A stretch of 58,533 bases of DNA from Candidatus Firestonebacteria bacterium RIFOXYA2_FULL_40_8. GTDB lineage: Bacteria; Oederibacteriota; D2-FULL-39-29. The notes beneath the pieces are model-generated. The model was given only the letters and a program-made list of their open reading frames with translations. It did not search any database and was not told where the DNA came from. This document shows positions 6,483-58,481 of this stretch, piece after piece. Position 1 is the first letter of the stretch. Each line of letters begins with the position of its first letter. Where the stretch lies: positions 1-58,533 of the forward strand of contig MFGS01000039.1 in assembly GCA_001778355.1 (NCBI GenBank), read 5' to 3'. A program made the translations under genes and the position numbers.

Positions 6483-6529
6483 CCGCAACCAGTAAGTGTA
6501 TCAATGTAATCGGAATACTGGAGGACAGA

Positions 6530-24355: not shown

Positions 24356-24377
24356 CCCGTAACTCGTAACCCGCTAC
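24356..24377 (+). repeat. 22-nt motif CCCGTAACTCGTAACCCGCTAC, copy 2, upstream of gmhB
   Basis: Identical to 6461-6482 and followed by a further TCGTAAC unit. Confidence 0.7.
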
Positions 24378-24402
24378 TCGTAACTAATAGGAAAATGCAA
24401 AT

Positions 24403-29841: not shown

Positions 29842-30808
29842 AAGCCCTTTGAGAATATCCCTCGGCGGCGGAGGCACCGACTTGCCTTCCTATTATAAAA
29901 AGTTCGGCGGGTTTTTAATTGCCTCTGCTATCGATAAATACATCTATATTACCGTGCATGAAACATTTATTGACGATATGATAATAAAATATTCTAAACT
30001 TGAAAGGGTGCCGGCAATACATAAGATTGAGCATCCGATAATAAGAGAAACTGTAAAAATGCTGGATATTAAAAATATGAATATTGAATTAACCAGCATG
30101 GCTGACATTCCTGCCGGGACGGGGCTGGGGTCTTCGGGGAGCTTTACTACGGCGCTCCTGCAGGCGCTCCATGCATATAAGCGGAACCTGGTACATCCTC
30201 ATGAACTGGCGGAACAGGCGTGTCATATTGAAATAGATCTATTGAAAGAGCCGATAGGAAAACAGGATCAGTACATTGCTGCCTACGGAGGGATTACTTG
30301 TTTTGAATTTCACAAGGATGACAAAGTCAGGGCGTATCCTTTAAAAATAGATAAGGAAACATTATATAATCTGGAGGATAATTTACTTTTGTTTTTCACG
30401 GGGTATTCGAGGTCTGCAAGCGGAATATTAAAAGACCAGCATGAAAAAAGTAATAAAGATGACAAAGAGATGCTGGATAATCTTCATTTTATAAAAGACA
30501 TAGGGCATAAGACAAAAGAAGCTCTTGAAAACGGCAACTTGCATGAGTTTGCAAGGCTTATGGATGTACATTGGCAAAAGAAGCGGGAACGCACCAAAGG
30601 TATGTCGAATGATAAGATAAACGAGTGGTATGAGCTGGCAAAGGATAACGGCGCTTTAGGCGGAAAACTAATCGGGGCAGGCGGCGGCGGATTTTTGATG
30701 TTTTATGCGGAAGATAAGACAAAGCTCCGCCATGTAATGAAGGAAGCGGGCCTTAAGGAAGTAAGGTTTAAATTTGATTTTGAAGGAACCAAGGTTATTG
30801 TTTCATGA
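29828..30808 (+). CDS. hddA: GHMP kinase, D-glycero-alpha-D-manno-heptose 7-phosphate kinase-like
   Basis: N-terminal MIIVRSPLRISLGGGGTDLPSYY is typical of HddA-type kinases. GHMP motif PAGTGLGSSGS. Confidence 0.75.
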   Translation: MIIVRSPLRISLGGGGTDLPSYYKKFGGFLIASAIDKYIYITVHETFIDDMIIKYSKLERVPAIHKIEHPIIRETVKMLDIKNMNIELTSMADIPAGTGLGSSGSFTTALLQALHAYKRNLVHPHELAEQACHIEIDLLKEPIGKQDQYIAAYGGITCFEFHKDDKVRAYPLKIDKETLYNLEDNLLLFFTGYSRSASGILKDQHEKSNKDDKEMLDNLHFIKDIGHKTKEALENGNLHEFARLMDVHWQKKRERTKGMSNDKINEWYELAKDNGALGGKLIGAGGGGFLMFYAEDKTKLRHVMKEAGLKEVRFKFDFEGTKVIVS

Positions 30809-31617
30809 AAGGAATTAGTGTTGTAATAATTGCCGGAGGTCTTGCTACAAGGCTCCGGCCTATCACGGAAAAGATTCCCAAGTCCTTAATAGATATAAAC
30901 GGAAAGCCCTTTCTGGAATACCAGCTAAGATTACTAAAAGAAAAAGGATTTACGGATGTTGTTTTATGTTTGGGGTATTTAGGATCAATGATTGAGAAAG
31001 AGTTTAAAGACGGCAGTAATCTGGGAATGAGTATACAATACAGCTACGACGGTGACAAGCTCTTAGGCACCGGCGGGGCGGTTAGGAAGGCGTTACCGCT
31101 GCTTAGCGATGTTTTTATAGTGATGTATGGGGATTCTTACCTTGATGTTGATTATAATGCAATAGTAGAAGCTTTTAATAATGACAAAGAGAAGCCACTG
31201 GGAATGATGACAGTTTACAGGAATGACAACAAATTTGACAAAAGTAATATAGTATATAAAGACGGCAGAATAATCGCCTATGACAAAAAGAACAAATTAC
31301 CCGGAATGGATTATATAGATTGGGGATTAAGTGTTTTCAGGAAGGAAGCGTTTGAAGAAGTGAATAAAGCAAAAAATGCAAGTAAAGCAAGTACAGAAAC
31401 AAAAGAGAGTAAAGAAAAGTTTGATCTTGAAGAATTGATGAAAATATTGATTGCAAAGAAAAAAATGGCGGGATATGAAGTAAGAGACAGGTTTTATGAG
31501 ATAGGTTCAGTTGAGGGCTTGGAAGAGTTAAGAAAGAAGCTGGCGAACGAAGTGAGTAAAGTGAATAAAGTGGGAACAGCAAAAGAAGTAACTGAAGCAA
31601 AAACAGAGAAATATTGA
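30805..31617 (+). CDS. hddC: Sugar-1-phosphate nucleotidyltransferase, heptose-1-phosphate guanylyltransferase-like
   Basis: VIIAGGLATRLRPITEKIPKSL, GKPFLEY, LGTGGA. It carries an internal low-complexity insert (about 31355-31419) and a K/E/T/V tail (31545-31614), both encoded by purine-rich tract sequence. ATGA overlap upstream. Confidence 0.75.
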   Translation: MKGISVVIIAGGLATRLRPITEKIPKSLIDINGKPFLEYQLRLLKEKGFTDVVLCLGYLGSMIEKEFKDGSNLGMSIQYSYDGDKLLGTGGAVRKALPLLSDVFIVMYGDSYLDVDYNAIVEAFNNDKEKPLGMMTVYRNDNKFDKSNIVYKDGRIIAYDKKNKLPGMDYIDWGLSVFRKEAFEEVNKAKNASKASTETKESKEKFDLEELMKILIAKKKMAGYEVRDRFYEIGSVEGLEELRKKLANEVSKVNKVGTAKEVTEAKTEKY

Positions 31618-31675
31618 AGTTGCAACTTCTAAAATTCCCAAGAAAGATTACTCTTTTCTGAAGCCTATTTGCTTT
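31411..31675 (+). repeat. Left copy of a long imperfect direct repeat (hddC 3-prime end plus 3-prime UTR)
   Basis: 31411-31480 matches 36443-36511, with 2 substitutions and one 1-nt indel. 31563-31675 matches 36622-36734, with 5 mismatches in 113 nt. Order and orientation are the same in both copies. Confidence 0.9.
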
Positions 31676-31708
31676 ACTTTTTTAACTTTTTTTGGGGAGT
31701 CTTACTAA
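31647..31708 (+). repeat. Left copy of a 62-nt direct repeat flanking the second ATPase module
   Basis: Matches 33468-33529: the last 42 nt are identical and the first 20 nt have 4 mismatches. Confidence 0.9.
31674..31708 (-). pseudogene. Orphan 3-prime fragment of a DUF1016 nuclease gene (last 8 codons TPQKKLKK plus stop)
   Basis: Identical to the true 3-prime end of the DUF1016 gene at 33495-33529. Upstream of it the reading frame has no similarity to that gene. Confidence 0.7.
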
Positions 31709-32145
31709 TGAAGAAAGAGGGACAGCCACACTTGTAGGTTGAATTCCTCCCCTCGATGAGACCTTTAAAACGTTTATGATCGCCGTAATTGTCGGCTTTT
31801 AACCTTTCCAATCGGACAAAGATTCTACTCACCCCTTGAGCAACCGAAAGGTTGATCATACCGAATGAGAATGGCGGGAGCCCTCTAAAAATTACTGTTA
31901 TAGGTTTTTCATTAATAGGTTTGTGCTTTCCCCTAGAGAGCATAAGCCGAAGAGCTTGTAACATTAAAAGGCAAGCTACTGTGAAGTCCAGGGCGAGAGG
32001 TTGCGCCTGCGTAAATGGCTTCTCCGTAGCCGGCCGGCGAATATTAGATTGTGCCCTCCATTTATTTGATAAACCTCGAGACTGGTATCAAGTAAAATAC
32101 AGCCAAAATAAGCGATTTTAACGAAAAATACTATATGCTATTACA
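31709..32145. ncRNA. ORF-poor, visibly GC-richer segment; candidate structured RNA or decayed element end (class and strand unknown)
   Basis: No credible ORF. Hairpins include CAACC-GAAA-GGTTG (31841-31854) and GAGAGG-N18-CTTCTC (31995-32024). 31984-32005 resembles 33350-33371. Confidence 0.3.
31724..31752 (+). repeat. Boundary motif AGCCACACTTGTAGGTTGAATTCCTCCCC, copy 1
   Basis: 27 of 29 nt identical to 33393-33421. A 14-nt core CCTTATAGGTTGAA recurs at 39210-39228. All three copies are in direct orientation. Confidence 0.8.
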
Positions 32146-32174
32146 TTGACATATAGTACTTTTTGTGATATATT
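32146..32174 (+). promoter_or_regulatory. Sigma-70-type promoter TTGACA-17 nt-TATATT for the second DUF4143 ATPase gene
   Basis: TTGACA at 32146-32151 and TATATT at 32169-32174. The ATG at 32184 is only 9 nt after the -10 box and has no RBS, suggesting a leaderless or near-leaderless mRNA. Confidence 0.6.
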
Positions 32175-32183
32175 TCTTTTGTT

Positions 32184-33335
32184 ATGATAAAAAGAACATT
32201 TTGGCAAAATAATATTGAAGCGGCTTGGAAAAGACACTCAGTAATCTGGCTTTCCGGTATAAGAAGAGCCGGCAAGACATTTCTTTGCAGAAATATTGAA
32301 GGTGCCGATTATTATGATTGCGAACTTCCAAGTATTAGAGAAAAGCTTAAAGATCCTGAGAAATTTCTTAATAATAATAAAAATAGAATACTGGTTTTTG
32401 ATGAAATCCATAGATTGGGTAATCCTTCCGAACTGCTTAAAATAGCCGCAGATTATCACCAAAATATAAAAGTTATTGCTACTGGCTCATCAACACTTGG
32501 CGCATCGTCAAAGTTTAGGGATACTCTTACGGGGAGAAAGAGTAATATCTGGATGACACCAATGATTTATACCGATATTTCAGAATTTTCAAATGTTAAT
32601 ATCAAACATCGAATGTTAAAAGGAGGGCTTCCTCCATTTTTTATGGCAAAAACTGATAATGAAAAAGACTATCAGGACTGGATAGATTCATACTGGGCAA
32701 AAGATGTACAGGAATTATTTAGATTAGAAAGCAAGAGTTCATTTCAAAAGTTTTTAGAGCTTCTTATTTATAATAGCGGTGGAATGTTTGAAGCAAACAC
32801 ATATGCTGTTCCTTGCGAAGTAAGTAGAGGTACCATCTCAAATTATTTAAAAATACTTGAGGAAACATATGTTGTTACTGTTGTTAAACCTTTTAATTCA
32901 CATAAACCTACGGAGATTGTGTCTGCTCCAAAAGTATATGTTTTTGACACCGGTTTTGTATCTCACTTTAAGGGATGGCATGATTTAAAAAATAAAGATT
33001 GCGGAATACTCTGGGAACATCTAATTTTAAATGAAATATTAGCAATTAGTCAAAGAAATATGGCATATTATTGGAGGACTAAAAAAGACTGCGAGGTTGA
33101 TTTTATTATTCCATTAAAAAACAAAAGCCAAGTAGCAATTGAATGTAAATGGAGCTTCAAGTCATTTGATGCGCAAAACGTTGTTATTTTTCGTAAAAAC
33201 TATCCTACGGGAGACAATATTGTTGTAGCACATGATGTAGAGGATGAATTCTTTAAAGATATAAACGGAGTAAAAATTAGATTTCTGAATTTAAAAAACT
33301 TTGAAAAATATTTAGTTTCATTGTTTCCTGCATAA
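32184..33335 (+). CDS. AAA+ ATPase with C-terminal DUF4143 domain (second copy, diverged)
   Basis: Walker A GIRRAGKTF, Walker B ILVFDEIH, and C-terminal CEVDFII. Same architecture as the gene at 4983-6254. Confidence 0.8.
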   Translation: MIKRTFWQNNIEAAWKRHSVIWLSGIRRAGKTFLCRNIEGADYYDCELPSIREKLKDPEKFLNNNKNRILVFDEIHRLGNPSELLKIAADYHQNIKVIATGSSTLGASSKFRDTLTGRKSNIWMTPMIYTDISEFSNVNIKHRMLKGGLPPFFMAKTDNEKDYQDWIDSYWAKDVQELFRLESKSSFQKFLELLIYNSGGMFEANTYAVPCEVSRGTISNYLKILEETYVVTVVKPFNSHKPTEIVSAPKVYVFDTGFVSHFKGWHDLKNKDCGILWEHLILNEILAISQRNMAYYWRTKKDCEVDFIIPLKNKSQVAIECKWSFKSFDAQNVVIFRKNYPTGDNIVVAHDVEDEFFKDINGVKIRFLNLKNFEKYLVSLFPA

Positions 33336-33392
33336 ATTATTATTTTGAGAGTAGCCAAGGCGAGAGATTGCATTAGCATCTTGAGTCTACCC

Positions 33393-33421
33393 AGCCACCC
33401 TTATAGGTTGAATTCCTCCCC
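33393..33421 (+). repeat. Boundary motif AGCCACCCTTATAGGTTGAATTCCTCCCC, copy 2
   Basis: See 31724-31752. Confidence 0.8.
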
Positions 33422-33467
33422 GGAAAAAGGTAAGAATAAATGAGGGACATTAATGTTTTTGAAAAAT

Positions 33468-33529
33468 ACTACTCTTTCCTGAAACCGATTTGCTTTACTT
33501 TTTTAACTTTTTTTGGGGAGTCTTACTAA
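33468..33529 (+). repeat. Right copy of the 62-nt direct repeat (covers the true DUF1016 gene 3-prime end)
   Basis: See 31647-31708. Confidence 0.9.
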
Positions 33530-34550
33530 GTCCAACTTCCAATTCTTTAATTGTAGGAAAGCTTGATTTAAGTTTCTTTGGTAATGAATGGGACAATATA
33601 TATTGAGAAATGCCGATTGGTTTACGAATATCACTCAAAGCATATTCGGCGACCATTTTATCTCTATTTTTACAAAGCAAGAGTCCTATGGTTGGCAGAT
33701 CTCCTTCGCTGCGTAACCGGTTATCAACTGCCTTGAGGTAAAAATTCAGTTTTCCTGCATGTTCCGGTTCGAAATCTCCGGTCTTTAGTTCAAGCACCAC
33801 ATAACAATGAAGACGAGTATGGTAGAACAAAAGATCGATAAAAAACTCGCGTTCCCCTACTTGAACAGGCACCTGTCTGCCAAGAAATGCGAACCCTGTG
33901 CCCAGTTCCAGCAAAAACTTCATTACATGATTTACCAAGGCATTTTCAAGTTCGTTTTCGTCATGTTCTTTTGACATGTTCAGAAAATCGAAGATGAATG
34001 GATCTTTAAGCGCTTGTTCGGCGAGGTCTGAGTTTGACTTTGGCAAGACAGACGCAAAATTATTAATGGACCTGCCTTTACGTTTATATAGGCCATTTTC
34101 TATCTGATGGACAAGAACATTACGGCTCCAGCTATTTGAAAGAGTGTTCTGTATATAAAATAGGGCTTCGTTTATGTTTTTACATTTGGACATAATGGCG
34201 ATATTATGCCCCCATGGTATTTGGGTTAATTGGGCAACAACTTGTTGCCCAATTGGACTATTTTTTGTATAAAACAGATACCATTGACGGATATACTTAA
34301 GATTTCGTAATGAAAAGCCTTGCATGGCGGGGAATTCCGAAGCAAGGTCTTTACTTAAATGGATTAATAATCCTTCTCCCCATTTTGTTTCTTTTTGTTT
34401 AAGTACAATATCTTTTCCCATACTCCAATACAACTCGAGTAATTCAGTGTTGACCTTCAGAGTTGCTTTAATCTGAGCATTACGCACTCTTATCTTAATA
34501 TCAGAGAGCCATGCCTTATAGACTTTATCAAAATGAATTTCAGATTTCAT
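33495..34550 (-). CDS. DUF1016 / YhcG-family PD-(D/E)XK nuclease domain protein
   Basis: The N-terminal helical region begins MKSEIHFDKVYKAWL. The C-terminal nuclease core is FIDLLFYHTRLHCYVVLELKTGDFEPEHAGKLNFY. ATG 34550 is preceded by GGGAGA. The 68 Leu-rich residues upstream in the track are the complement of a purine-rich tract. Confidence 0.85.
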   Translation of the reverse strand: MKSEIHFDKVYKAWLSDIKIRVRNAQIKATLKVNTELLELYWSMGKDIVLKQKETKWGEGLLIHLSKDLASEFPAMQGFSLRNLKYIRQWYLFYTKNSPIGQQVVAQLTQIPWGHNIAIMSKCKNINEALFYIQNTLSNSWSRNVLVHQIENGLYKRKGRSINNFASVLPKSNSDLAEQALKDPFIFDFLNMSKEHDENELENALVNHVMKFLLELGTGFAFLGRQVPVQVGEREFFIDLLFYHTRLHCYVVLELKTGDFEPEHAGKLNFYLKAVDNRLRSEGDLPTIGLLLCKNRDKMVAEYALSDIRKPIGISQYILSHSLPKKLKSSFPTIKELEVGLSKTPQKKLKK

Positions 34551-34553
34551 ATA

Positions 34554-34630
34554 TTTCTCCCTTGAGAAAATAGATAATAGTATTTTACAGAAAAACAGAA
34601 GAAAAAGCAAATAAAGAAAGAGAAGCAGGG
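34554..34630 (-). promoter_or_regulatory. Conserved 5-prime flank (RBS plus promoter region) shared with the ORF6N gene, copy 1
   Basis: About 70 of 78 positions are identical to 37279-37356. It begins immediately upstream of the start codon on the minus strand. Confidence 0.7.
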
Positions 34631-34776
34631 GAAGCAAGAACAGGAATAACAGTGAGTAAAGTGAAGAAAGTGGAAACAGGGACGACAGTAAGAGAAGCAG
34701 GAGAAGTAAAGGAAGCAAGTACAGTAAGTGAAGCAAAAGAAGTAAGAACAGCAAAAACAGAGAAATATTTAAATTC

Positions 34777-34806
34777 TTGCCGTTACTCTCTTTAATCTGC
34801 TATAAT
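34777..34806 (+). promoter_or_regulatory. Promoter TTGCCG-18 nt-TATAAT for the AlbA_2 gene
   Basis: TTGCCG at 34777-34782 and TATAAT at 34801-34806. The resulting leader of about 140 nt contains the hairpin repeat at 34857-34877. Confidence 0.5.
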
Positions 34807-34951
34807 TAGTCCAAGGTCACCTAAGGGGTGAGATAAAGGCAAATTCGAAGCACTAACCCTCCAAAAAGATTGGCGGGTGACTAATATTTATATACTAAGG
34901 TCAGTCAAATTCGAAACTTATTGTATTAATAAAGCTCAAGGGGGAAAGGGT

Positions 34952-36292
34952 ATGTTTTTGAAAGAATCCGAAGTATTAGAGTTGAAAAAATCAACGTCTG
35001 AAATTAAAGAGGCAATAGTTTCTATCTCTTCTATCCTGAATAAACATCAGAGGGGCGAGTTATATTTTGGCGTTAAGAATGACGGGGAGATTGTAGGTCA
35101 GACAATCGGAGCGTCTACTCTGCGGGATATTTCTCAGGCAATATCGAATCATATCGAACCAAAGATATATCCTTCAATAGATGCGGTTAATATCAGAGGT
35201 AAAACCTGCATTAAGATTGAGTTTCAAGGCGAAGATATTCCCTACCATGCTTATGGCCGGGTTTATATTAGAGTCGCAGATGAAGATAGGCAGTTAAGCC
35301 CTAATGAAATAAGAAAAGTTATTTTAAAAAAGAATAAGGATAAATATATATGGGAATCGGAATATTCAGGTTTCGATATTAAAAAGGTAAGCGAAAAGGC
35401 AGTAAAAAGCTTTATCAAAAAAGCGAAAATATTTAAAAGAATAGATTTTGGTTTCAGTGGTGTAAAAACAGTTCTAAATAAATTAGGATTGATGCGCAAT
35501 CAGAAGCTGTTAAAGCCGGCAGAGCTGCTGTTTTGTAATAATGATACATTTGAAGTACAGGCTGCGGTCTTTGCCGGTACTGATAAAATAACATTTTTGG
35601 ATATAGATAAATTTACTGGAAATTTGTTTGATATTTTGGAGAAATCCGAAGCTTATATAAGAGAGCACATTAATTGGGGCGTAAAATTCGGGAGATTGGA
35701 GAGGGAGGAAGTTCCGGAAATACCTATTAAAGCGATAAGAGAAGCTCTGGTAAATTCGTTGTGTCATAGAGATTATTCAGTTCCCAAGGGCAATGAAATT
35801 GCGATTTTTAAGAACAGGGTTGAAATATACAATCCTGGTGAATTTCCGGAAGAGTTATCGCCGGAAGATTTTATAAAAGGTAAAGAAAGATCTGTTTTAC
35901 GAAATCCGCTTATTGCCGAAGTATTTTATAAAGCAAAAGAAATAGAAAAGTGGGGTTCCGGGCTAAAACGAATTAATGATGAATGCAAGGCGGTTAAAAT
36001 AAAAGTTGAATTTAAAGTTCTTAAAACAGGATTTATGGTTGTCTTCTATAGGCGGGAAAAAGCCGAAGCACCAGTTCCTAATAAAACACACAGAAAACAC
36101 ACAGAAAACACACAGAAAATAATAGAGGCTATAATTAAAAATCCGGCAATATCAAGAAAGCAGCTTTCAAGAGATACTAAAATGAGTGTCAGCAGTGTTA
36201 TTCATCAGCTGAGAACATTGCAGAAAGACAAATATATAAAACGTGTTGGCCCGGACAAAGGCGGCTATTGGGAAGTAATAGAAAACAGCTAA
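34952..36292 (+). CDS. AlbA_2 (Schlafen-type) domain + HATPase_c_4 + winged-HTH protein (the RecG-like putative transcriptional regulator architecture)
   Basis: N-terminal ESEVLELKKS...ELYFGVKNDGEIVG (AlbA_2). Central IREALVNSLCHRDY...EKWGSGLKRI (HATPase_c_4). C-terminal HTH ISRKQLSRDTKMSVSSVIHQLRTL. ATG 34952 follows a G-rich RBS. Confidence 0.8.
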   Translation: MFLKESEVLELKKSTSEIKEAIVSISSILNKHQRGELYFGVKNDGEIVGQTIGASTLRDISQAISNHIEPKIYPSIDAVNIRGKTCIKIEFQGEDIPYHAYGRVYIRVADEDRQLSPNEIRKVILKKNKDKYIWESEYSGFDIKKVSEKAVKSFIKKAKIFKRIDFGFSGVKTVLNKLGLMRNQKLLKPAELLFCNNDTFEVQAAVFAGTDKITFLDIDKFTGNLFDILEKSEAYIREHINWGVKFGRLEREEVPEIPIKAIREALVNSLCHRDYSVPKGNEIAIFKNRVEIYNPGEFPEELSPEDFIKGKERSVLRNPLIAEVFYKAKEIEKWGSGLKRINDECKAVKIKVEFKVLKTGFMVVFYRREKAEAPVPNKTHRKHTENTQKIIEAIIKNPAISRKQLSRDTKMSVSSVIHQLRTLQKDKYIKRVGPDKGGYWEVIENS

Positions 36293-36442
36293 GGGAAGAA
36301 GAGAAAGCAGTAACAGTAAAAAAAAGCAAAAACAGTAGAAGAATTAAGAGAAGTAAGAACAGAAAGAAAAGACCCTGGATCTCCACCACAAAGCGTTGGT
36401 GGATCAAAGACCCGCTATTAAAAACTACAGGATGACAAAGGG

Positions 36443-36511
36443 AAAGAAAAGTTTGACCTGGAAGAATTGATGAAAATATTGATTGCAAAGAAAAAATGGC
36501 GGGATATGAAG
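36443..36511 (+). pseudogene. Displaced, frameshifted copy of a 70-nt internal segment near the hddC 3-prime end
   Basis: Matches 31411-31480 except for 2 substitutions and loss of one A in the A-run. It is not part of any ORF. Confidence 0.8.
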
Positions 36512-36734
36512 AAAGGGAAGCAGGGGAAGCAAACAAAGCAAGTACAGTAAGTGAAGTGAAGGAAGTTGAGGAAAGTCTAAATATCAGACAGGTATACTTT
36601 CCGAAATCCACCTAGGCGGATGAATAAAGTGGGAACAGCAAAAGAAGTAACTGAAGCAAAAACAGAGAAATATTGAAGTTGCAACTTCTAATATTCCTAT
36701 GAAAGATTACTCTTTTCTGAAACCGATTTGCTTT
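36443..36734 (+). repeat. Right copy of the long imperfect direct repeat
   Basis: See 31411-31675. The central part (36512-36621) is replaced by purine-rich tract sequence and a TCCACCTAGGCGGA hairpin. Confidence 0.9.
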
Positions 36735-37274
36735 TTGGGTTTGGTTGGTTGATTTATCATCCTTCGAATCTGGCCAATTATATCTTTTATTACCTCGCTC
36801 CTCCAAAAAGATTGGCGGACAGGCGTGGGTTTCTATTTTGTTGTCATGTAATTCCATTTTGCTTTCAATTTTTGCAAGTTTTTCAAGTATTTCCTTGTGG
36901 GTTAATAAATACCTTCTAAATGAAACAAAAACACGCATTATTTCTATGTTAATTGTGATGGCTCTATCGCTGTTTAAAACACCCGATAGCATTGCGATAC
37001 CTTGCTCTGTAAAGGCATAAGGATTGTAGCCGCCTAGATATTTCCTGGATGGTATCGCAAATTGCGATACCATGGTCGCGACTTCTTCATCTGTTAATTG
37101 AAACATGAAATCTGCAGGGAAGCGCTTTATGTTTCTTTTAACTGCCTCGTTTAAAATTCTGGTCTCAACCGCATACAATTCCGCAAGATCCGAGCTTAAC
37201 ATTACGTATTCGTTCCTTATAAGGTGTATTTTGCTTTCTATTGCTTTTAAAACTATCGGATGTTTTTCAATCAT
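36612..37274 (-). CDS. ORF6N (KilA-N-like) DNA-binding domain protein; C-terminal about 60 aa read through repeat sequences
   Basis: LSSDLAELYAVETRILNEAVKRNIKRFPADFMFQLT...NPYAFTEQGIAMLSGVLNSDRAI is a textbook ORF6N pattern. After HDNKIE the frame runs through a CCGCCAA hairpin repeat (36800-36818) and the 113-nt repeat, so the native C-terminus is probably disrupted. Confidence 0.75.
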   Translation of the reverse strand: MIEKHPIVLKAIESKIHLIRNEYVMLSSDLAELYAVETRILNEAVKRNIKRFPADFMFQLTDEEVATMVSQFAIPSRKYLGGYNPYAFTEQGIAMLSGVLNSDRAITINIEIMRVFVSFRRYLLTHKEILEKLAKIESKMELHDNKIETHACPPIFLEERGNKRYNWPDSKDDKSTNQTQKANRFQKRVIFHRNIRSCNFNISLFLLQLLLLLFPLYSSA

Positions 37275-37278
37275 TTTG

Positions 37279-37356
37279 TTTCTCCCTTGAGAAAATAGAT
37301 AAGAGTATTATGCAAAAAAATAGTAGAAAAAGCAAATTAAAGAAAGAGAAGCAGGG
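37279..37356 (-). promoter_or_regulatory. Conserved 5-prime flank shared with the DUF1016 gene, copy 2
   Basis: See 34554-34630. Confidence 0.7.
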
Positions 37357-37735
37357 AAAGTGCGGACAATGAGCAAAGTGGAGAAAGCAAGAGTAGCAAG
37401 TACGAAGTACGAGGTCCAAAGTAAGAAGTTAAAGCAGGAAAAACAAAAGCAGTGAAAAGGGATGACAAACAGGGAAAAGTGAGGCAGGATAAAGACAGAG
37501 GTTTAGATGGTTGTCCGCCAATTATGTTAGGCGGATCTCTGGAAGAGATGCTTGGAGGCTTGGCGATTGCAAAAAAAACAAAGGGATGACAAACTAGGAA
37601 ATGTGAGATACAATGAAGATAGACGCGCGGAGGCTCAGAAGCGCAGCAAGAACTGATATATTGGATGGATTTTTATCTACTCTCGATTTTCGATTGTCTA
37701 TTTTCTGCCATGACTGCTTCATGGCTAGGGGGATT

Positions 37736-38119
37736 ATGAAAACCTTTAAATTACACTCCAGGGTGATAATAATTGTTTTGGTGTTGGTTCTTTTTGCTAT
37801 GAATAGCAAGGCGAGGGCGGTGGAGATTCCTGATGATAAGTTTAACCATGCTATGATAGGGTTTGCCATCGGGGCTATTTCTACAAAATGGATGGACGCG
37901 CAATATACTTTGGAGTATAAGACTTGTACTACAGAAGGACTCCTTAAGATTTGTGATAGAAGAATGAAAGAAAAAGACCTGTGGTTCTATACCGTTCCGG
38001 TTCTCACGATTATAGGTTATGCTCTTATAAAAGAAATAACGGATAGTAATTTTGATGAAAATGATTTTCTTTATTCGGTAGTGGGTGGAGTAGCGGGAAT
38101 AACGCTCATTTCATGGTAA
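37736..38119 (+). CDS. Small secreted/membrane protein (possibly YfiM/DUF2279-like)
   Basis: 127 aa. Signal/TM start MKTFKLHSRVIIIVLVLVLFAMNSKA. DKFNHAMIGFAIG and IKEITDS motifs. Second TM near the C-terminus. ATG 37736 follows AGGGGGA. Confidence 0.4.
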   Translation: MKTFKLHSRVIIIVLVLVLFAMNSKARAVEIPDDKFNHAMIGFAIGAISTKWMDAQYTLEYKTCTTEGLLKICDRRMKEKDLWFYTVPVLTIIGYALIKEITDSNFDENDFLYSVVGGVAGITLISW

Positions 38120-38453
38120 CGGATGGAAGCGCAGAGGCTCGGATGCTTGGAGGCGCGGCAAAAACAGAAAAAACAGTGAAGAAAGTGGGTAAAGAAAAAA
38201 GCCTGGTCGCCGGCTTTTAGGCGAGCAGTCCGCCAACGCTTTTTGGCGGAAAGAGCAGTAGAAGAAGGAATAGAATCAAGAACTGCTCCTCATTAATTTT
38301 GCACTCATTGTGTGCCGATTTCCGGAAAGATTGTGAACGCTTTGCGTTCATAATTGAAAATTAGGTTTCTTTGAAAGTCAATTCTTGACGCAGTCTGTCG
38401 ATAATATTATGACTGAGTTGACCAACAGGTTGTTGGCTGATTTAGCCCTCCTC

Positions 38454-38482
38454 TTGACATTATAGACATATGTTGCTATAAT
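38454..38482 (+). promoter_or_regulatory. Consensus sigma-70 promoter TTGACA-17 nt-TATAAT for vapBC
   Basis: TTGACA at 38454-38459 and TATAAT at 38477-38482. Confidence 0.65.
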
Positions 38483-38543
38483 TACTGTAGTATATATGAC
38501 AGCATTGTAAGGTGGTCAAATATACAAAAAGGAGAATAATAAG

Positions 38544-38798
38544 ATGAAAAAAATTAAGACGATGGTTTATCTTGATCGAGACTGTAAAAAGAAAGCTTTA
38601 GAACTCAAAAACATTACTCATAAGAGTTTAAGCTTTCTGGTTGAGGAAGGTCTGGAAGCAGTTATATTAAAGTATTCATTGAAGCCTAAAACAATGAAAG
38701 AAGCGATAAAAACTTCTTACGGATCCATACCAAGCATTAAAAATATGAGAGATGAATTAAACAAAGATTTTGAGAAACGCGCTGAGAGGATAAGATAA
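38544..38798 (+). CDS. Type II antitoxin (VapB-like, RHH/CopG-type)
   Basis: 84 aa. The start MVYLDRDCKKKALELK fits a ribbon-helix-helix fold. The stop overlaps the toxin start (TAATG). Confidence 0.6.
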   Translation: MKKIKTMVYLDRDCKKKALELKNITHKSLSFLVEEGLEAVILKYSLKPKTMKEAIKTSYGSIPSIKNMRDELNKDFEKRAERIR

Positions 38799-39202
38799 TG
38801 AAAGAAAATGCAAAGTATGGCATTGAAAAAACTAAATATCTCCTGGATACGGATGTTTTAATAAACCATCTTAGTAAAAAAAGAGATACTTTGAATAAAC
38901 TTTCAGAAAAGGAAAATATAAGCATTTCTTTAAGCGTGCTGAATAAATTTGAGCTATTTCGCGGCATAGATGATATTAAAGATAAAGATACAGCGGACGA
39001 TGTTATCAGGTATTTTGATGTATATCCGGTAAGTGAATTAATTGCTGATAGAGCTTCAGAACTGGCTAAATTAAAAAATATCCCGGCCGGACCTGTAGAT
39101 ATTTTGATTGCGGCTACTTGTATAGAAAACAACCTGATTTTAGTTACAGAAAATATAAAACATTTCAAGAATATACCGGGACTTGTAATTTATAAGGAAT
39201 GA
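38798..39202 (+). CDS. vapC: PIN-domain toxin VapC
   Basis: 134 aa. YLLDTDVLI (first acidic residue), ELIADRASEL, DILIAATCIENNLILVTEN. Confidence 0.8.
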   Translation: MKENAKYGIEKTKYLLDTDVLINHLSKKRDTLNKLSEKENISISLSVLNKFELFRGIDDIKDKDTADDVIRYFDVYPVSELIADRASELAKLKNIPAGPVDILIAATCIENNLILVTENIKHFKNIPGLVIYKE

Positions 39203-39209
39203 AAAGGGA

Positions 39210-39228
39210 CACCTTATAGGTTGAAATC
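39210..39228 (+). repeat. Boundary motif, copy 3 (CACCTTATAGGTTGAAATC)
   Basis: 14-nt core identical to copy 2. It lies 8 nt after the vapC stop, at the right edge of the accessory island. Confidence 0.6.
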
Positions 39229-39325
39229 ACTTAAAGGGAAAGCAGGTGAAGTAAAATAAGTACTTAGATAAAATAATACCACCAATGAAAAAGACTTTCG
39301 ACCTTACGAACCTTATGGACGGTTT

Positions 39326-39988
39326 TTAAGAGCCCTTTTTTGAGACTATTATCCAGAGGGTTTTTATCAGGATTATTATGTCCAGGGCTACGGACATGTG
39401 TTGGATGTAGAATTCGTCGAAGAACCATTTTTCGTGGGGCTTAAAATGATATGTGCCTTCTACCTGGGCGAGGCCGGTAAGGCCGGGGTTTACGCTAAGG
39501 CGGTCGCCCTGAAGCTCTCTATGTTGTCTTACGAAGAAAGGGCGTTCTGGCCTCGGGCCTACCAGACTCATATCGTCTTTAATAACATTCCAAAACTGTG
39601 GGAGTTCGTCGATACGGGTTCTTCTTAAGAACTTTCCTAAAGTTGTAACTCTATTATCATTGTGTTTTGCCCAGACGGGGCCTGTGTGTTTTTCTGCATC
39701 AGCAACCATGCTGCGGAATTTATAAAGTACAAAAATCCTGCCGTACCTGCCGACACGCTCCTGCGCGTAGATAGCAGGGCCTTTGGAAGAAAACCTTATA
39801 AGAATAGCAATAATTAATAATAAAGGGCTTAGAACAAATAAGGCAAATATGGAAAGTATAAGGTCTATAATACGTTTTACAACAAAGAAAGCAGCCTTAT
39901 TTTCTTTAATATGCAGCCATTTGTTTTTACTGCGGTAATCCAGTCCAAGCAGGTCTTTGTATGCTTTCAGTTTGCTATGCGGCGACAC
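39326..39988 (-). CDS. Initiating phosphoglycosyl transferase (bacterial sugar transferase family, WbaP/PglC-like)
   Basis: KRIIDLILSIFALFVLSPLLLIIAILI re-entrant helix. KFRSM, and RIDELPQFWNVIKDDMSLVGPRPE. Confidence 0.85.
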   Translation of the reverse strand: MSPHSKLKAYKDLLGLDYRSKNKWLHIKENKAAFFVVKRIIDLILSIFALFVLSPLLLIIAILIRFSSKGPAIYAQERVGRYGRIFVLYKFRSMVADAEKHTGPVWAKHNDNRVTTLGKFLRRTRIDELPQFWNVIKDDMSLVGPRPERPFFVRQHRELQGDRLSVNPGLTGLAQVEGTYHFKPHEKWFFDEFYIQHMSVALDIIILIKTLWIIVSKKGS

Positions 39989-40316
39989 GTTTGTTCCTTT
40001 CTATTCGATATCAAACATCCGCATTAATATACAGTGAAAACAGGTGTTTGTCAATCCTTATAAGCCCTTTATAACCGGCTTAAATTGTGAGTTTTTACAC
40101 AAGCGAATATACATTACATTGCCTAATCAGCAGCCCGCCTGAGGCGGGTTCAATCGAACCCGAAACTAACCTGGAATCTCAATATTTTAATGCGCAAAGG
40201 TAAGTGTTTTCTGCTTCGAATTCGGGTTCCATTGTACTCTTTAATTTATGCCGGCTAAAGTGTATACTATTAGAAAATCGCTTTGCTGCGATAATGTATG
40301 AAAAGAAAGGGAAAAT

Positions 40317-41573
40317 ATGAAGAAAATAATATATTTAGCAGGTGTTCTGGTCTTTTGTTTTTGCTTTCAGCTCAGGGCGGAATACACTCACCTCACCTGG
40401 GAGGATGATCCTAAAACTTCAATGACCGTTATCTGGCAGAAATCCGAAAAAATTGACGGGAAAGTTAAATATGGTTTGGAAAAGGAAAACCTGGATCAAA
40501 CGGTAACTGCCAGGATGGAGACAGTTAAAGATATAGAAACCGAGAGAAAAAAACGTATTGAAACAGAAAAAGAAATATTTTTTAGAGATGTTAAAACGGA
40601 GAAAGGCCTTGTTTATATTTATAAAGCAAAACTTTCCGGGCTGAAGGCGGGAACGCAGTATTTCTATTCTATAGAAGGAGACAGTAAAGGAATAAATACT
40701 TTTACTACTGCTCCGGAAGGGGATGCAAATTTTACTTTTATTGCAGGCGGCGACAGCGGGGATAATAATACAATGCTGGTCCAGTTAATGAGAGCCATCC
40801 AGCGTTACAGGGCAAAATTTTTCCTTCACGCGGGAGATATGGCGCATGAAGCGGCGGATAGCGCAAAAATATGGAATGAATTTCTTATCTCTATTCAGCC
40901 GTTCTCATTTTCGATGCCGGTCATGCCGACTCCCGGTAATCATGACGGGGATGAAGACCCGGAGTTTGTCAACTATTTAGCGCGTTTTGCTTTGCCTAAA
41001 GGAAAAGATAACGGGCTTAACTACAGTTTTAATTACGGTAATTGTCATTTTGTCTCACTTTTTGCTTCGGAAACAAAAGTCAGCACGGATAAATATTCAA
41101 AAACAGCCGTGTGGCTCGAAGAGGACCTCCGCTTGGCAAACTCCGCCAGATACAAGATAGTTTTTGCCCATGCGCCGCTTTTCAGCACGGGCGATCACGG
41201 TTCGGATGAAAAAGCCAGAGAGCTGTTCGCTCCTCTTTTTGATAAATACCGGGTTAACCTTTATATTGACGGGCATGACCATGGGTATGAACGTTCCAAA
41301 TCCATAAATTACACAGTATCCAAGAAAAGCGCGCAAACCAGTTATAAGAACGGAACGTGTTATGTCGTAGCCGCGGGACTGGCATCTGCCTACCGTAAAG
41401 TCAGAGGCGACTGGTGGACAGCCAAAAGCATGCAAAGAGATTCGAAAGGTAATAACAAGGACAAACATTATATAATGAAGATAGACGTTACCGACGACAA
41501 ACTCAAGGTGCAGGCGATAGGTGATGACGGTAAAGCCCTCGACGATTTTGACCTTCCTAAACGGGACAAATAA
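40317..41573 (+). CDS. Secreted metallophosphoesterase with purple-acid-phosphatase-type N-terminal domain
   Basis: Signal peptide, an FN3-like N-terminal domain (TSMTVIWQ), and the metallophosphoesterase motifs GDSGD, HAGDMAHE, GNHD and GHDHGYER. Confidence 0.7.
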   Translation: MKKIIYLAGVLVFCFCFQLRAEYTHLTWEDDPKTSMTVIWQKSEKIDGKVKYGLEKENLDQTVTARMETVKDIETERKKRIETEKEIFFRDVKTEKGLVYIYKAKLSGLKAGTQYFYSIEGDSKGINTFTTAPEGDANFTFIAGGDSGDNNTMLVQLMRAIQRYRAKFFLHAGDMAHEAADSAKIWNEFLISIQPFSFSMPVMPTPGNHDGDEDPEFVNYLARFALPKGKDNGLNYSFNYGNCHFVSLFASETKVSTDKYSKTAVWLEEDLRLANSARYKIVFAHAPLFSTGDHGSDEKARELFAPLFDKYRVNLYIDGHDHGYERSKSINYTVSKKSAQTSYKNGTCYVVAAGLASAYRKVRGDWWTAKSMQRDSKGNNKDKHYIMKIDVTDDKLKVQAIGDDGKALDDFDLPKRDK

Positions 41574-44033: not shown

Positions 44034-45623
44034 ATGAAAAAGAAAATGCCGGGGTGGTTATCTAACGCGGTTTTTTATGAGATATATCCCCAGAGTTTTA
44101 AGGATACGAACGGGGACGGGATAGGCGATTTAAAAGGTATTACGTCAAAGCTTGACTATATCAAAGGTCTCGGCTGCACGGCGATCTGGATTAATCCTTG
44201 CTTTGTGTCACCTTTCCAGGACGCCGGGTATGATATTGCGGATTATTACAAAGTGGCTCCCAGGTATGGTTCAAATGCGGACTTGAAAAAGCTTTTTAAA
44301 GAAGCTCACAACCGCGGTATGCGGGTTATCCTGGACCTGGTTCCGGGGCACACTTCAATACAGCACCCGTGGTTTAAGCAGTCCTGCGAGCCAAAAAGAA
44401 ATAAATATACCGACCGGTTCATCTGGACGGACGGAACTTTCATTACGGCTATGCCCGAATGCCGTTCTATATCCGGGTATTGCGACCGCGTCGGACAGTA
44501 TGTAGTAAACTTTTTTTACAGCCAGCCTGCGTTAAATTACGGGTTTGGACGTCCGGATCCGAAGAAAAAATGGCAGCAGGGGTATAATGATCCCGGTCCG
44601 AAATCTACCCGGGCGGAGCTTAAAAAGATTATGAGATTCTGGCTGGATATGGGAGCCGACGGCTTCCGCGTGGATATGGCGGCGTCGCTTATGAAAGGTC
44701 CTAAGAGTTCGAGATATATTAATAAAATCTGGCGCGAGATACGACAGATGCTGGACCGTGATTATCCGGAAGCAATGATAGTTTCCGAATGGGGAAGTCC
44801 CGACAGGGCTATCAAAGCGGGGTTCCATTGCGACTTTATGCTTCATTTCGGCCCTCCGGCGTATAACTCCCTTTTCCGCTATGAGACCGAAACAAAGAAT
44901 AAAAAAAGTTTCTTTAACCGTAAAGGCGGTGGAAGCGTAGTTGAATTTGTTGATTATTATAAGGAGATATATAAAGAAGCCGATAAGAAGGGATATATAT
45001 GTATTCCGTCAGGTAATCATGATATGTTCCGTCTCGGATCGGGAAGGACCGATGCAGATCTCAAAGTTATTTTTGCTTTCCTTTTGACGATGCCCGGAGT
45101 TCCTTTCGTTTATGCCGGGGATGAAATCGGGATGAAACATAATGTAAAGGTCCGGAGTAAAGAAGGCGGTTTTGAAAGGACCGGCGCCAGGACCCCGATG
45201 CAATGGGACAGCTCCAAAAATAAAGGTTTTTCAAAAGCCGTCCCGGGAAAACTGTATCTGCCGGTAGATAAAAAAGGCCCCGAGGTGGAAAAGCAGATGA
45301 ACACCGAAGGTTCATTATGGCAGACTGTGAAAAGATTAATTGCTTTGCGGCATAAAATCCCGGCTCTTTCCTCGGACGGTTCCTTTAAGGTGCTTTACGC
45401 CCGCCATCGTAAAAGTCCGTTCGTATACGAGCGCGAACTTAGCGGTCAAAAGTATATCATCGCGGTAAACCCGCTGGCAAAAAAAGTGAAAGCGGTTTTT
45501 CCATATAAGAAGCATAATTCCTACACATGTGAAGTAGAAGGCTCGGGGAATGAGCTGAAGCTGTCAAAATCCCGCGTATCAATAGCAATGGGTCCGGTGT
45601 CGTATTCCATCTATAAGGTTTAA
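44034..45623 (+). CDS. GH13 alpha-amylase-family glycosidase (oligo-1,6-glucosidase/trehalose-synthase-like)
   Basis: AVFYEIYPQSFKDTNGDGIGDLKG, DLVPGHTS, GFRVDMA, VSEWG, PSGNHD: the conserved GH13 regions I-IV. Confidence 0.85.
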   Translation: MKKKMPGWLSNAVFYEIYPQSFKDTNGDGIGDLKGITSKLDYIKGLGCTAIWINPCFVSPFQDAGYDIADYYKVAPRYGSNADLKKLFKEAHNRGMRVILDLVPGHTSIQHPWFKQSCEPKRNKYTDRFIWTDGTFITAMPECRSISGYCDRVGQYVVNFFYSQPALNYGFGRPDPKKKWQQGYNDPGPKSTRAELKKIMRFWLDMGADGFRVDMAASLMKGPKSSRYINKIWREIRQMLDRDYPEAMIVSEWGSPDRAIKAGFHCDFMLHFGPPAYNSLFRYETETKNKKSFFNRKGGGSVVEFVDYYKEIYKEADKKGYICIPSGNHDMFRLGSGRTDADLKVIFAFLLTMPGVPFVYAGDEIGMKHNVKVRSKEGGFERTGARTPMQWDSSKNKGFSKAVPGKLYLPVDKKGPEVEKQMNTEGSLWQTVKRLIALRHKIPALSSDGSFKVLYARHRKSPFVYERELSGQKYIIAVNPLAKKVKAVFPYKKHNSYTCEVEGSGNELKLSKSRVSIAMGPVSYSIYKV

Positions 45624-45717
45624 AGAAGCAAGGAAAGCAAAGGAAGAAACAACAGTAAAGGAAGTAAAAGAAGGAAGGGAAAAAAGAGTCAATCCGAATT
45701 AAAATTAAGGGACTGTA

Positions 45718-51557: not shown

Positions 51558-51897
51558 GAAGGAAAACATCTTCAAGTAATATTTTAAATTATGAAAAGAC
51601 ATGTATAGATCTGCAAATCATTAAAGTAGCAGTCGAAATGAAAACCCTACCATTTGAAAATATCATATGATATAATACAAAAACTGTAAATTGAGCAGCA
51701 GCAGAAGAAGCAAATGAAGAAAAGGAAGTAAAAAACTGAGCAAAGCGAAGTTGTGGCGCATTGGTCGTCATATTCCGTTATGTAGCGAAAGCGAAATGAT
51801 TCAATATTAAGTTCCAATCGGATCAGACGAATGCAGTCAAGTAGAACATTAGAATTCAAGAAATATAGAGTTATAGCAAGTTTACAAGTAAACCCAT

Positions 51898-56384: not shown

Positions 56385-56740
56385 AGAGTCCTGGGAGCTG
56401 GGTCAGTGCCCGGTGTGACATTAGTCACAGGATACGTCACCCAGTAACTCTAAGAAATTATATCAAATTATATATAGTAATGCAAATATATTTCAAAAGA
56501 ATAGAGCGTGTTATTCGTTATGTCGGCAAAATATAGTGAAATCCTAAGGTCACAATTTGTTTAATGTGGTCCAAAAGATCAGATTGTCGCGACGGTGTCA
56601 CGACAATTGGAAAACACAATAAGATTATCAAGTGCTTCGCTGTCGCTTGTTATGGTAGAATAAGTCAGATGCACGGAAGTACAGATGCTTAGATGGTTGG
56701 AAGGTCAGAGGTTTAGCAAAAACCGAAAAAAAGCAGTTTT

Positions 56741-56763: not shown

Positions 56764-56776
56764 AGTTGGAGAAAAG

Positions 56777-57302: not shown

Positions 57303-58481
<1,179 letters not shown>

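Follow-up and report, generated by a model that had tools for sequence, protein, structure and literature searches.

Known systems compared with the locus

Transfer of core defence hotspots by homologous recombination of their conserved flanks has been proposed, and how defence islands gain or swap content without mobile-element genes is regarded as an open question (PMC10250203). By a definition quoted in PMC3082526, the minimal mobile elements of Neisseria are whole-gene cassettes, swapped between conserved sequences by homologous recombination with no recombinase of their own. The Xer-dependent dif modules of Acinetobacter plasmids hold one to a few genes between short conserved sites and rely on a host enzyme acting in trans (PMC13141974, PMC6449649).

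Here we analyzed a contig of Candidatus Firestonebacteria bacterium RIFOXYA2_FULL_40_8 (MFGS01000039.1); "the window" denotes the whole 58,533-nucleotide stretch. In it, a duplicated piece of the 3′ end of hddC brackets about 5 kb of accessory genes. For comparison we used L098, DNA of a second Candidatus Firestonebacteria genome in which an island of the same gene families lies beside another polysaccharide cluster. Our favored explanation, to which we assign about an even chance, is a modular array of defence cassettes that has been rearranged by recombination at shared modules, the hddC fragment being the scar of one such event. The island would be composed of single-gene cassettes, with a small number of conserved non-coding modules framing the genes. 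On the 5′ side this would be P or Q, with a putative promoter, 5′ UTR and ribosome-binding site, and on the 3′ side T-a or T-b.

Like the core defence hotspots, such as cDHS1 of Pseudomonas aeruginosa, the locus lacks obvious mobile-element genes and holds a possibly variable set of defence genes flanked by conserved genes of the chromosome. It differs from them in that each island gene is framed by shared promoter and 3′ modules and in the duplication of part of the adjoining core gene; to our knowledge, neither feature has been described for core hotspots. The locus shares with the Neisseria elements whole-gene cassettes between conserved sequences and the absence of an own recombinase, but the conserved sequences there are the flanking genes, whereas here they are short non-coding modules, repeated within the array in both orientations. 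Small modules that are bounded by short conserved sequences and lack a recombinase also recall the dif modules; here, however, they are chromosomal and include promoters. We found no match to ATAA-N6-TTAT or to a XerD arm in or beside P, Q and T, a motif that may not be the one used in this phylum.

Chromosomal integrons can hold defence genes, and their arrays of single-gene cassettes separated by a recurring sequence element resemble the present arrangement. In contrast to integrons, cassettes are found here in both orientations, and each has a promoter module of its own, P or Q. The T modules contain no paired RYYYAAC/GTTRRRY motifs, attC hairpins were not found, and no intI was present among the scanned ORFs of the island or seen elsewhere in the window, where the scans covered part of the ORFs upstream of 29.8 kb. 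Features of MITE- or REP-type elements were likewise not found: the modules have no inverted termini and no significant fold. In the DNA examined, their copies are confined to the islands; the rest of the 58-kb window has none, and neither does the polysaccharide part of L098.

Duplication of the hddC 3′ end

Two blocks of sequence, M1 and M2, recur downstream in the same order and orientation, as a first-pass annotation of the window had reported. The gene and the two sets of copies are as follows.

30805-31617, + strand: hddC, NTP_transferase, 270 aa (Pfam; alignment with eight homologues)
31411-31484, + strand: left copy of M1, functional hddC coding sequence, KEKFDLEELMKILIAKKKMAGYEV
31562-31675, + strand: left copy of M2, purine-rich hddC tail and stop codon, then a T-a module with the 33-nt core
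36443-36515, + strand: right copy of M1, frameshifted hddC fragment (pseudogene piece)
36516-36620, + strand: replacement segment in the right copy, purine-rich spacer and hairpin, TCCACCTAGGCGGA
36621-36734, + strand: right copy of M2, with tail, T-a module and 33-nt core (36702-36734)

The copies of M1 are 94.6% identical over 74 nt (31411-31484 versus 36443-36515; E 1.5e-25 within the window) and those of M2 95.6% identical over 114 nt (31562-31675 versus 36621-36734; E 1e-48), at offsets of 5032 and 5059 nt. Alignment with homologues identifies M1 as genuine hddC coding sequence. The left copy is in frame and completes the gene, which ends at 31617, again as first proposed. The right copy of M1 has six instead of seven A residues in an A-run, which shifts the frame, and carries two substitutions (GAT>GAC and CTT>CTG), both synonymous. 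While the first-pass annotation correctly described this lost A and the substitutions, its statement that the right copy lies in no ORF does not hold: in antisense, the right M2 encodes the last 40 codons of a 220-aa ORF6N frame (36612-37274). In these codons (residues 181-220) a frameshift has let the gene read on into M2 antisense, because a 96%-identical relative is only 180 aa long.

The sequences that separate M1 from M2 in the two copies are unrelated. The left interval (77 nt) encodes the conserved end of HddC, RFYEIGS...LEELRKKL. The right interval (105 nt) occupies the place of that end with a purine-rich spacer, 82-85% identical to 34614-34743, and a small hairpin. The hddC tail in M2 is itself a purine-rich spacer that is absent from all eight aligned homologues, and it represents read-through into a spacer of a kind common in the window; a third copy of its end lies at 34732-34775. 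Missing from the same homologues are an in-frame purine-rich insertion of hddC at 31353-31410 and its C-terminal extension of ~20 aa (about 31546-31614). Within M2, the first 64 nt (31562-31625) show no differences between the copies; the left copy contains the 14-nt palindrome of T-a at 31616-31629 and the 33-nt core at 31643-31675. As both M1 substitutions are synonymous, the copies weakly suggest (n = 2) an origin from two functional hddC alleles, that is, recombination with DNA from a relative.

Cargo genes and the defence island

Between and just beyond the repeats, we assigned the following features.

31676-31708, − strand: YhcG-type relic, last 11 codons and stop codon with no gene attached
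31714-31752, + strand: copy of M4, the end of the T-b module (GAGGGACAGCCAC.CTT.TAGGTTGAATTCC)
31753-32145, + strand: non-coding stretch, origin unassigned
32184-33335, + strand: DUF4143 AAA ATPase cassette (AAA_14/DUF4143; Pfam), PDC-S01 (PADLOC)
33392-33496, strand unassigned: T-b module separating DUF4143 from the convergent YhcG gene, with M4 at 33392-33421 and a 33-nt core copy (Y) at 33464-33496
33495-34550, − strand: YhcG/DUF1016 PD-(D/E)XK nuclease cassette (DUF1016_N/YhcG_C; Pfam), PDC-S02 (PADLOC)
34545-34634, − strand: P module of YhcG, with promoter-like hexamers, 5′ UTR and ribosome-binding site
34572-34775, + strand: purine-rich period-9 spacer, ending in the hddC tail-end copy (34732-34775, 86-89% identical to M2)
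34777-34951, + strand: Q module, TGnTATAAT promoter and 5′ UTR of the AlbA_2 gene
34952-36292, + strand: AlbA_2/HATPase_c_4/wHTH protein cassette (Pfam)
36293-36442, + strand: purine-rich spacer and small hairpin (36382-36403) before the right repeat
36612-37274, − strand: ORF6N cassette (Pfam), PDC-S05 (PADLOC), native end near 36735
37271-37360, − strand: P module of ORF6N

Pfam recovered the cargo families that had been named from the sequence: AAA_14/DUF4143, DUF1016_N/YhcG_C and AlbA_2/HATPase_c_4/HTH. The suggestion that the nuclease or ATPase cargo mobilizes the segment found no support; these families are defence-island candidates (PDC-S01, PDC-S02). Together with PDC-S05, AbiEi and AbiEii, the PADLOC calls form a cluster of known and candidate defence genes that continues beyond the right repeat to AbiE at about 43 kb. 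The island also encodes a PIN protein with a small 84-aa ORF directly before it, possibly a toxin-antitoxin pair. As part of the favored explanation, and at the same roughly even chance, a phage-defence island (about 31.6-43 kb) would lie at the end of the heptose/polysaccharide gene cluster, and the segment would form its proximal part.

The DUF4143 cassette has its own promoter (32146-32174), and its homologues occur alone in other contexts with 91% and 82% nucleotide identity (range 82-91%), the homology stopping at the gene borders. This gene thus moves singly. The non-coding stretch preceding it (31753-32145) has a G+C content that, judged by eye without a composition profile, looks higher than that of its surroundings, and folds better than shuffled sequences on the + strand (z = -4.25) and not on the − strand (z = -0.9). 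It matched no Rfam family and no protein homologue and is not conserved beside DUF4143 homologues. With Rfam, the whole window yielded only a tRNA-Glu, and 31550-32250 gave only chance-level matches at the E-value threshold. A 96-aa ORF (31674-31964, − strand) had no Pfam match; its single match among 1.84 billion representatives was a repetitive 3431-aa protein, which BLASTP did not confirm. A YhcG-like pseudogene in 31600-32200 was also considered and rejected, tblastn having matched module-encoded tails only. The relic at 31676-31708 aligns to 33497-33529 without mismatch, within a longer local repeat (31643-31708 = 33464-33529). Two more such repeats pair 31723-31752 with 33392-33421 and 34554-34634 with 37279-37360. 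The first-pass annotation had listed none of these, nor the tail-end copy at 34732-34775.

Shared modules outside the coding sequences

From the hddC stop codon onward, the repeat is a generic multi-copy 3′ inter-cassette module (T), copies of which adjoin many cassettes in the two genomes. A generic 3′ element was what the first-pass annotation had named as counting against its own reading, and this proved partly right, with at least three copies of T in the related island, each 3′ of an unrelated gene. T-a with its core lies at 31610-31692, 36669-36734 and 33464-33500 in the window and at 353-435, 6391-6459 and 7264-7328 in L098. The last two are directly 3′ of YhcGb and ORF6Na, and the first is ~400 nt 3′ of a DUF4143 gene, which M4 directly follows. 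T-a and T-b have the 33-nt core in common and may include the last codons and stop codon of a gene.

P occurs in the window at 34545-34620 and 37271-37346, the YhcG copy being 90% identical to that upstream of ORF6N, and in L098 at 5276-5352, 6680-6754, 7465-7540 and 8228-8267, where every copy closely precedes a gene. Four recurrences were found for T-b and three for Q, which also lies upstream of Abi_2 and YhcGa in L098. Scans of viral contigs with the core and P patterns gave no match; the M4 pattern gave one 18-nt match (L104), rejected as chance level. An apparent spacer-length polymorphism among samples of the related island was rejected as well, as it was a premature stop altering a gene call.

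Between the window and L098, the nucleotide identity is about 90% for P, 86% for the core and 97.5% over 40 nt for M4, compared with protein identities of 30-31% for YhcG and only 27% for DUF4143. The ORF6N homology block spans exactly T-a to P (36670-37335). The modules, much better conserved than the genes that they flank, thus appear to outlast them, which argues for the cassette array, although part of their high identity could be due to gene conversion or shared regulation and not to a role in mobility. Apart from a modest hairpin in the right T-a copy, folding of the T modules does not exceed that of shuffled sequences (z near 0); they lack notable secondary structure and do not look like strong terminators. 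A point against the cassette array is that this leaves their conservation unexplained.

A third copy of the core (33464-33496) lies within the bracketed segment, and the left copy is chimeric: the sequence to its left matches that beside the right copy, whereas the sequence to its right matches that beside this internal one. Such swapping of flanks among the three core copies, together with the confinement of the modules to the islands, supports recombination within a cassette array.

Origin of the bracketed segment

The first-pass annotation had interpreted the segment as an integrated element that supplied a replacement gene end. We consider it unlikely that a discrete integrative element, its recombinase encoded elsewhere or lost, entered the hddC 3′ end and brought a new end, leaving the displaced original to decay on the right. 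The partial duplication around 5 kb of accessory genes stands, and as in genomic islands that restore their target gene at its 3′ end, direct repeats bracket accessory DNA and the gene is intact, the left copy functional and the right one frameshifted. The synonymous-only M1 differences would fit a foreign allele, and the first 64 nt of M2, identical between copies, form a block able to hold a crossover. The idea of one coherent unit with att sites, however, is not supported. Unlike in such genomic islands, there is no integrase. The scanned cargo ORFs at 31.6-36.7 kb contain no recombinase domain (Pfam), as already noticed from the letters, and no tyrosine or serine recombinase appeared in the cargo ORFs scanned at 31.6-37.3 kb (Pfam) or in the ORFs to 46 kb (Pfam, PADLOC). 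The cargo consists of independent cassettes and is not a unit, since DUF4143 moves alone. Half of the supposed att repeat is the generic module with its many copies in the related island, the segment itself contains the third core copy, the right copy has had its middle exchanged for other sequence instead of simply decaying, and the island runs on past the right repeat.

In the cassette array that we favor, hddC would ancestrally have faced ORF6N across one shared T-a module. Recombination with DNA bearing a second hddC 3′ end would then have inserted three cassettes between the two genes, the functional end being kept on the left, while the right fragment later lost its middle and its reading frame. 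More generally, we infer that cassettes are gained, lost and swapped at the modules, which may provide portable homology or be recognized by a factor whose gene lies elsewhere. The synonymous-only M1 differences fit two hddC alleles, and the cargo of defence-island candidates, with AbiE further on, agrees with this course of events. So does the nearest hddC relative (75% identity), where upstream synteny is kept and the downstream neighbor differs.

Several observations weigh against it. The modules have been seen in two genomes only, and if homologous recombination had acted only at T, it would have duplicated T and left the 74-nt hddC fragment single, so that the explanation also calls for a second step or for an illegitimate joint at 36442/36443. 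The empty site that the first-pass annotation had proposed to look for, with hddC followed directly by ORF6N, was not found: every contig retrieved by exact match to hddC, hddA or ORF6N has the same island, including all six with an exact hddA or hddC protein. These six same-species contigs showed no alternative occupancy, and no empty site appeared in them or in wider scans of this thinly sampled lineage. HddC scans of genome and metagenome collections retrieved nothing closer than 52% identity, and the loci fetched with HddC held no further YhcG or ORF6N genes.

The joint at 36442/36443 bears on another explanation, local rearrangement without transfer, which we likewise regard as unlikely. 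In one version, a tandem duplication that began within hddC would have been trimmed by deletion from core to core; in the other, repair would have patched a copy of the hddC end in beside ORF6N through T-a homology. The left boundary of the right copy lies inside hddC coding sequence, off the module boundaries, with purine-rich DNA on both sides; the shared T core would supply the needed homology, and the YhcG-end relic (31676-31708) shows that deletions at the core have happened. However, at least two steps are required, and the ~5% divergence of the copies, with only the two synonymous substitutions in M1, fits two alleles better than a decaying copy.

A chimeric join or collapsed repeat at multi-copy modules of a metagenome assembly is very improbable. 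Contigs of the source and related population do often break at modules or at an intragenic palindrome, but three assemblies made with different pipelines agree at 100% identity over 31000-40400, which is thus not a mis-join. In addition, a short contig (L004) that starts in hddC crosses the left junction and matches the window without difference for 342 nt.

Implications and intragenic palindromes

The locus offers a concrete, testable picture in which unrelated single-gene defence candidates carry interchangeable modules, 85-97% identical in nucleotide sequence around genes of about 30% protein identity, and a single recombination event is recorded in the scar at the edge of the island. If the modules are exchange points, they would give a lineage a simple route to circulate defence genes that arrive ready for expression. 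A bolder proposal, which we think quite unlikely, is that P/Q and T are dedicated exchange sites of an undescribed chromosomal, bidirectional system, in which targeted homologous recombination, or a factor whose gene lies elsewhere, would shuffle defence cassettes with their own promoters, the conserved intragenic hairpins of YhcG and ORF6N taking part in regulation or movement of these genes.

The YhcG/DUF1016 and ORF6N families are very common in defence islands, and we know of no function for either. YhcG contains a 27-nt perfect palindrome within the gene (34228-34254) and ORF6N one of 25 nt (37049-37073). A perfect intragenic palindrome occurs at a fixed position in YhcG and ORF6N genes across phyla, and these family-wide palindromes form a separate lead.

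Duplication of the hddC 3′ end

Self-comparison of the window revealed two blocks at the 3′ end of hddC, which we refer to as M1 and M2, that recur about 5 kb downstream in the same order and on the same strand:

30805-31617: hddC (NTP_transferase), containing the left copy
31411-31484 and 36443-36515: left and right copies of M1, 94.6% identical over 74 nt (E 1e-25)
31562-31675 and 36621-36734: left and right copies of M2, 95.6% identical over 114 nt (E 1e-48)

Both blocks thus lie where the first-pass annotation had placed them. As it had also described, the left copy lies inside hddC and completes the gene, while the right copy has lost one A (an A7 run shortened to A6) and carries substitutions; the two in the coding block of right M1 are both synonymous. 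The claim that the right copy falls in no open reading frame did not hold, since the reading frame of ORF6N, which runs on the opposite strand, contains right M2. The last 40 codons of ORF6N are a frameshifted read-through over right M2, because a relative with 96% identity has only 180 aa.

Between M1 and M2 the two copies are unrelated. The left interval comprises 77 nt coding for the conserved RFYEIGS...LEELRKKL end of HddC, and the right one 105 nt of purine-rich spacer with a small hairpin. An alignment with eight homologues shows two extra segments in the window HddC, a 14-aa insertion just before M1 and a C-terminal extension of about 20 aa, both consisting of purine-rich sequence with a 9-nt periodicity. 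A third copy of the hddC tail end (AAAACAGAGAAATATT) closes another purine-rich tract at 34754, and the tail part of M2 is therefore spacer read-through rather than ancestral hddC. Genuine hddC coding sequence is confined to M1; the earlier description of the repeats as hddC sequence stands for this block and fails for the "C-terminal tail" in M2. The region 31000-40400 is identical across three assemblies, so the duplication is not a mis-join, and we regard an assembly artefact as highly improbable.

A defence island beside a polysaccharide cluster

The window derives from an aquifer metagenome bin, Candidatus Firestonebacteria bacterium RIFOXYA2_FULL_40_8, and hddC is the last gene of a long polysaccharide/heptose gene cluster. 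The genes 3′ of hddC are, in order:

1: DUF4143 AAA ATPase
2: YhcG/DUF1016 nuclease
3: AlbA_2/HATPase_c_4/HTH protein
4: ORF6N
5: small protein of 168 aa with no assigned function
6: PIN protein, with an 84-aa ORF ahead of it
7: Bac_transf sugar transferase
8: metallophosphatase
9: AbiEi/AbiEii

PADLOC assigned the DUF4143 ATPase to PDC-S01, the YhcG nuclease to PDC-S02 and ORF6N to PDC-S05. Enrichment of these families in defence islands has long been recognised, and we know of no mechanism for any of them. On these grounds the bracketed segment forms the beginning of a defence island, the class under which we file the locus; the island runs well beyond the right repeat.

Shared 5′ and 3′ modules in two genomes

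The 96%-identical ORF6N protein is encoded in an island of a second genome, Firestonebacteria RIFOXYC2_FULL_39_67 (locus L098), which also adjoins a polysaccharide cluster and has the gene order DUF4143, YhcG, Abi_2, YhcG, ORF6N, ORF6N, epimerase. Short non-coding modules of the window recur many times in this island:

P (about 76 nt): 5′ module with -35/-10-like hexamers, 5′ UTR and ribosome-binding site; upstream of YhcG and ORF6N in the window and of four genes in the relative
Q: second 5′ promoter module; upstream of the AlbA_2 gene in the window and of Abi_2 and a YhcG in the relative
T-a: 3′ module, M2 from the hddC stop onwards, with a small palindrome and a 33-nt core; three copies in the relative, two of which directly follow YhcGb and ORF6Na, the third (353-435) being separated from the 3′ end of the DUF4143 gene by about 400 nt
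T-b (about 110 nt): 3′ module formed by the core and an end termed M4; between DUF4143 and YhcG in the window, four copies in the relative

The genes have diverged far more than the modules beside them. The window YhcG shares 30–31% protein identity with the YhcGs of the relative and the DUF4143 proteins share 27%, whereas nucleotide identity is about 90% for P, 86% for the core and 97.5% for M4. Within the DNA examined the modules are confined to the islands, none being present in the rest of the window or in the polysaccharide part of the related locus, and they were seen in these two genomes only. The T modules are unstructured and, at most, weak terminators. A promoter module and a 3′ module shared gene by gene are a feature that we have not seen described before.

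The bracketed cargo is not a unit. Homologues of the DUF4143 gene with 91% and 82% nucleotide identity reside in other contexts, one of them in another Firestonebacteria bin beside a tRNA gene and an IS3 fragment. For both, homology stops close to the gene borders, a few to 100 nt away, and the T-b module is absent beside them. The nearest hddC relative (75% identity), on a 27.4-kb contig of ERZ1426827, retains synteny upstream and is followed downstream by a small ORF and a methyltransferase. No empty site was found.

Junctions at the 33-nt core and origin of the arrangement

The core occurs three times in the window:

31643: copy L, left flank hddC tail, right flank YhcG-type gene end
33464: copy Y, right flank YhcG-type gene end
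36702: copy R, left flank hddC tail, right side running into ORF6N

The right flank common to L and Y is 33 nt long and encodes the final 11 residues and the stop codon of a YhcG-type gene; in copy L it is a relic with no gene attached. Since L combines the left flank of R with the right flank of Y, the left junction consists of R-type and Y-type flanks joined at the core, the pattern that recombination at the core would produce.

We consider the chances about even that the locus is a modular array of defence-gene cassettes, rearranged by recombination at the shared 5′ and 3′ modules, with the hddC fragment as a scar. Under this model, hddC and ORF6N would initially have faced each other over a single T-a module, and one recombination event would have placed three cassettes between them, leaving the hddC fragment. 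Because recombination at T modules alone leaves the M1 duplication unexplained, a further step would be needed: either a circularised fragment would have entered by a Campbell-type single crossover, or the joint at 36442/36443 would be illegitimate. The substitutions in M1 are all synonymous; although there are just two, they hint at two functional hddC alleles and thus at DNA from a relative. The repeats could instead have come from the locus itself, by a duplication, deletion or repair patch of purely local origin, which we think unlikely.

The first-pass annotation had proposed a discrete element that entered the hddC 3′ end and supplied a replacement end. The repeats, the functional left copy and the frameshifted right copy agree with such an element, whose integrase would act in trans or have been lost, but no integrase was found in the ORFs scanned and the cargo is not a single unit, and we find this reading doubtful. 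The same two points separate the locus from 3′-end-targeting genomic islands, an otherwise analogous class. Among the closest analogues are also the minimal mobile elements of Neisseria (PMC3082526), core defence hotspots that lack mobile-element genes (PMC10250203), integrons and Xer-dependent dif modules (PMC13141974, PMC6449649). No dif-like site was found here, and the array shows none of the defining features of integrons (attC-like motifs and hairpins, co-orientation and promoter absence).

Intragenic hairpins in YhcG and ORF6N genes

All 12 YhcG/DUF1016 genes examined, from diverse phyla (Firestonebacteria, Polaromonas, Pseudanabaena, Legionella, Salmonella, Hymenobacter, Citrobacter and others; window 34228-34254, YhcGa and YhcGb of L098, plasmid loci L105-L113), contain a hairpin, usually a perfect palindrome, at a fixed position 10–25 codons ahead of the conserved W(G/S/T)H motif. 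The stem has 8–14 perfect Watson-Crick pairs in 9 of the 12. No clear G-U strand bias is seen. Stem sequences and encoded peptides vary from gene to gene, and the structure is therefore kept through compensatory change.

Of 12 ORF6N genes from Firestonebacteria, Legionella, Bacteroides, Treponema and Segatella (window 37049-37073, ORF6Na and ORF6Nb of L098, L114, L115 and L116-L123), 10 carry a perfect palindrome of 7–14 pairs, 15–25 codons ahead of the FTEQG motif. Its centre is conserved (TCGCAAWTTGCGA or TCACAAATTGTGA) and its outer stem variable and compensatory; the best other stem within these genes has 5–7 pairs, except for one of 9 pairs in L119. The YhcG and ORF6N stems account for two of the four intragenic stems of at least 9 pairs in the whole window. 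The papers searched made no mention of either hairpin.

The intergenic stretch 56520-56770, after a DUF3800 gene, contains a free-standing ORF6N-type palindrome (TTGAGGTCACAATTTGTGACCTCAA, 56740-56764), a half-site whose sequence resembles part of ORF6N (ATCCTAAGGTCACAATTTG) and an imperfect palindrome of the YhcG type (ATTGTCGCGACGGTGTCACGACAATTG). Such genes may have left them behind as relics, or they may be sites in their own right.

Spacers, other repeats and contig ends

Purine-rich tracts with 9-nt periodicity (GAAGCA / ACAGTA / AAAGTG units) occur about 13 times in the window, all of them purine-rich on the + strand and none pyrimidine-rich, in intergenic spacers, at gene 3′ ends and within coding sequence, where they insert in frame into proteins such as HddC or extend them (for example 2388-2526, 6310-6380, 31353-31421, 31529-31613, 34572-34768, 36266-36380, 36469-36576, 37289-37510, 38141-38201, 45611-45713, 51686-51756 and 58449-58529). 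In both the window and the related genome, the tracts are antisense to ORF6N.

The non-coding stretch 31753-32145 has a + strand fold of -133.8 kcal/mol (z = -4.25, 421 nt tested) with many G-U pairs, and no unusual fold on the - strand (z = -0.9). It has no Rfam match, its 96-aa ORF lacks a real homologue, and it is not present beside the DUF4143 homologues of relatives. Short intergenic repeats include CCCGTAACTCGTAACCCGCTAC-type tracts upstream of two genes (6461-6489 and 24356-24384) and small TCCGCC...GGCGGA hairpins (6395, 36608, 37507 and 38229); the related island has one of these hairpins (GTCCGCCAATTATGTTAGGCGGA) between cassettes as well.

Among short-read contigs of this population, L124 breaks exactly at the YhcG intragenic palindrome (its end corresponding to window position 34252) and L003 exactly at the T-a module, with its end at the hddC stop codon. 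Metagenome bins are therefore likely to contain islands of this type in fragments and to under-report them.
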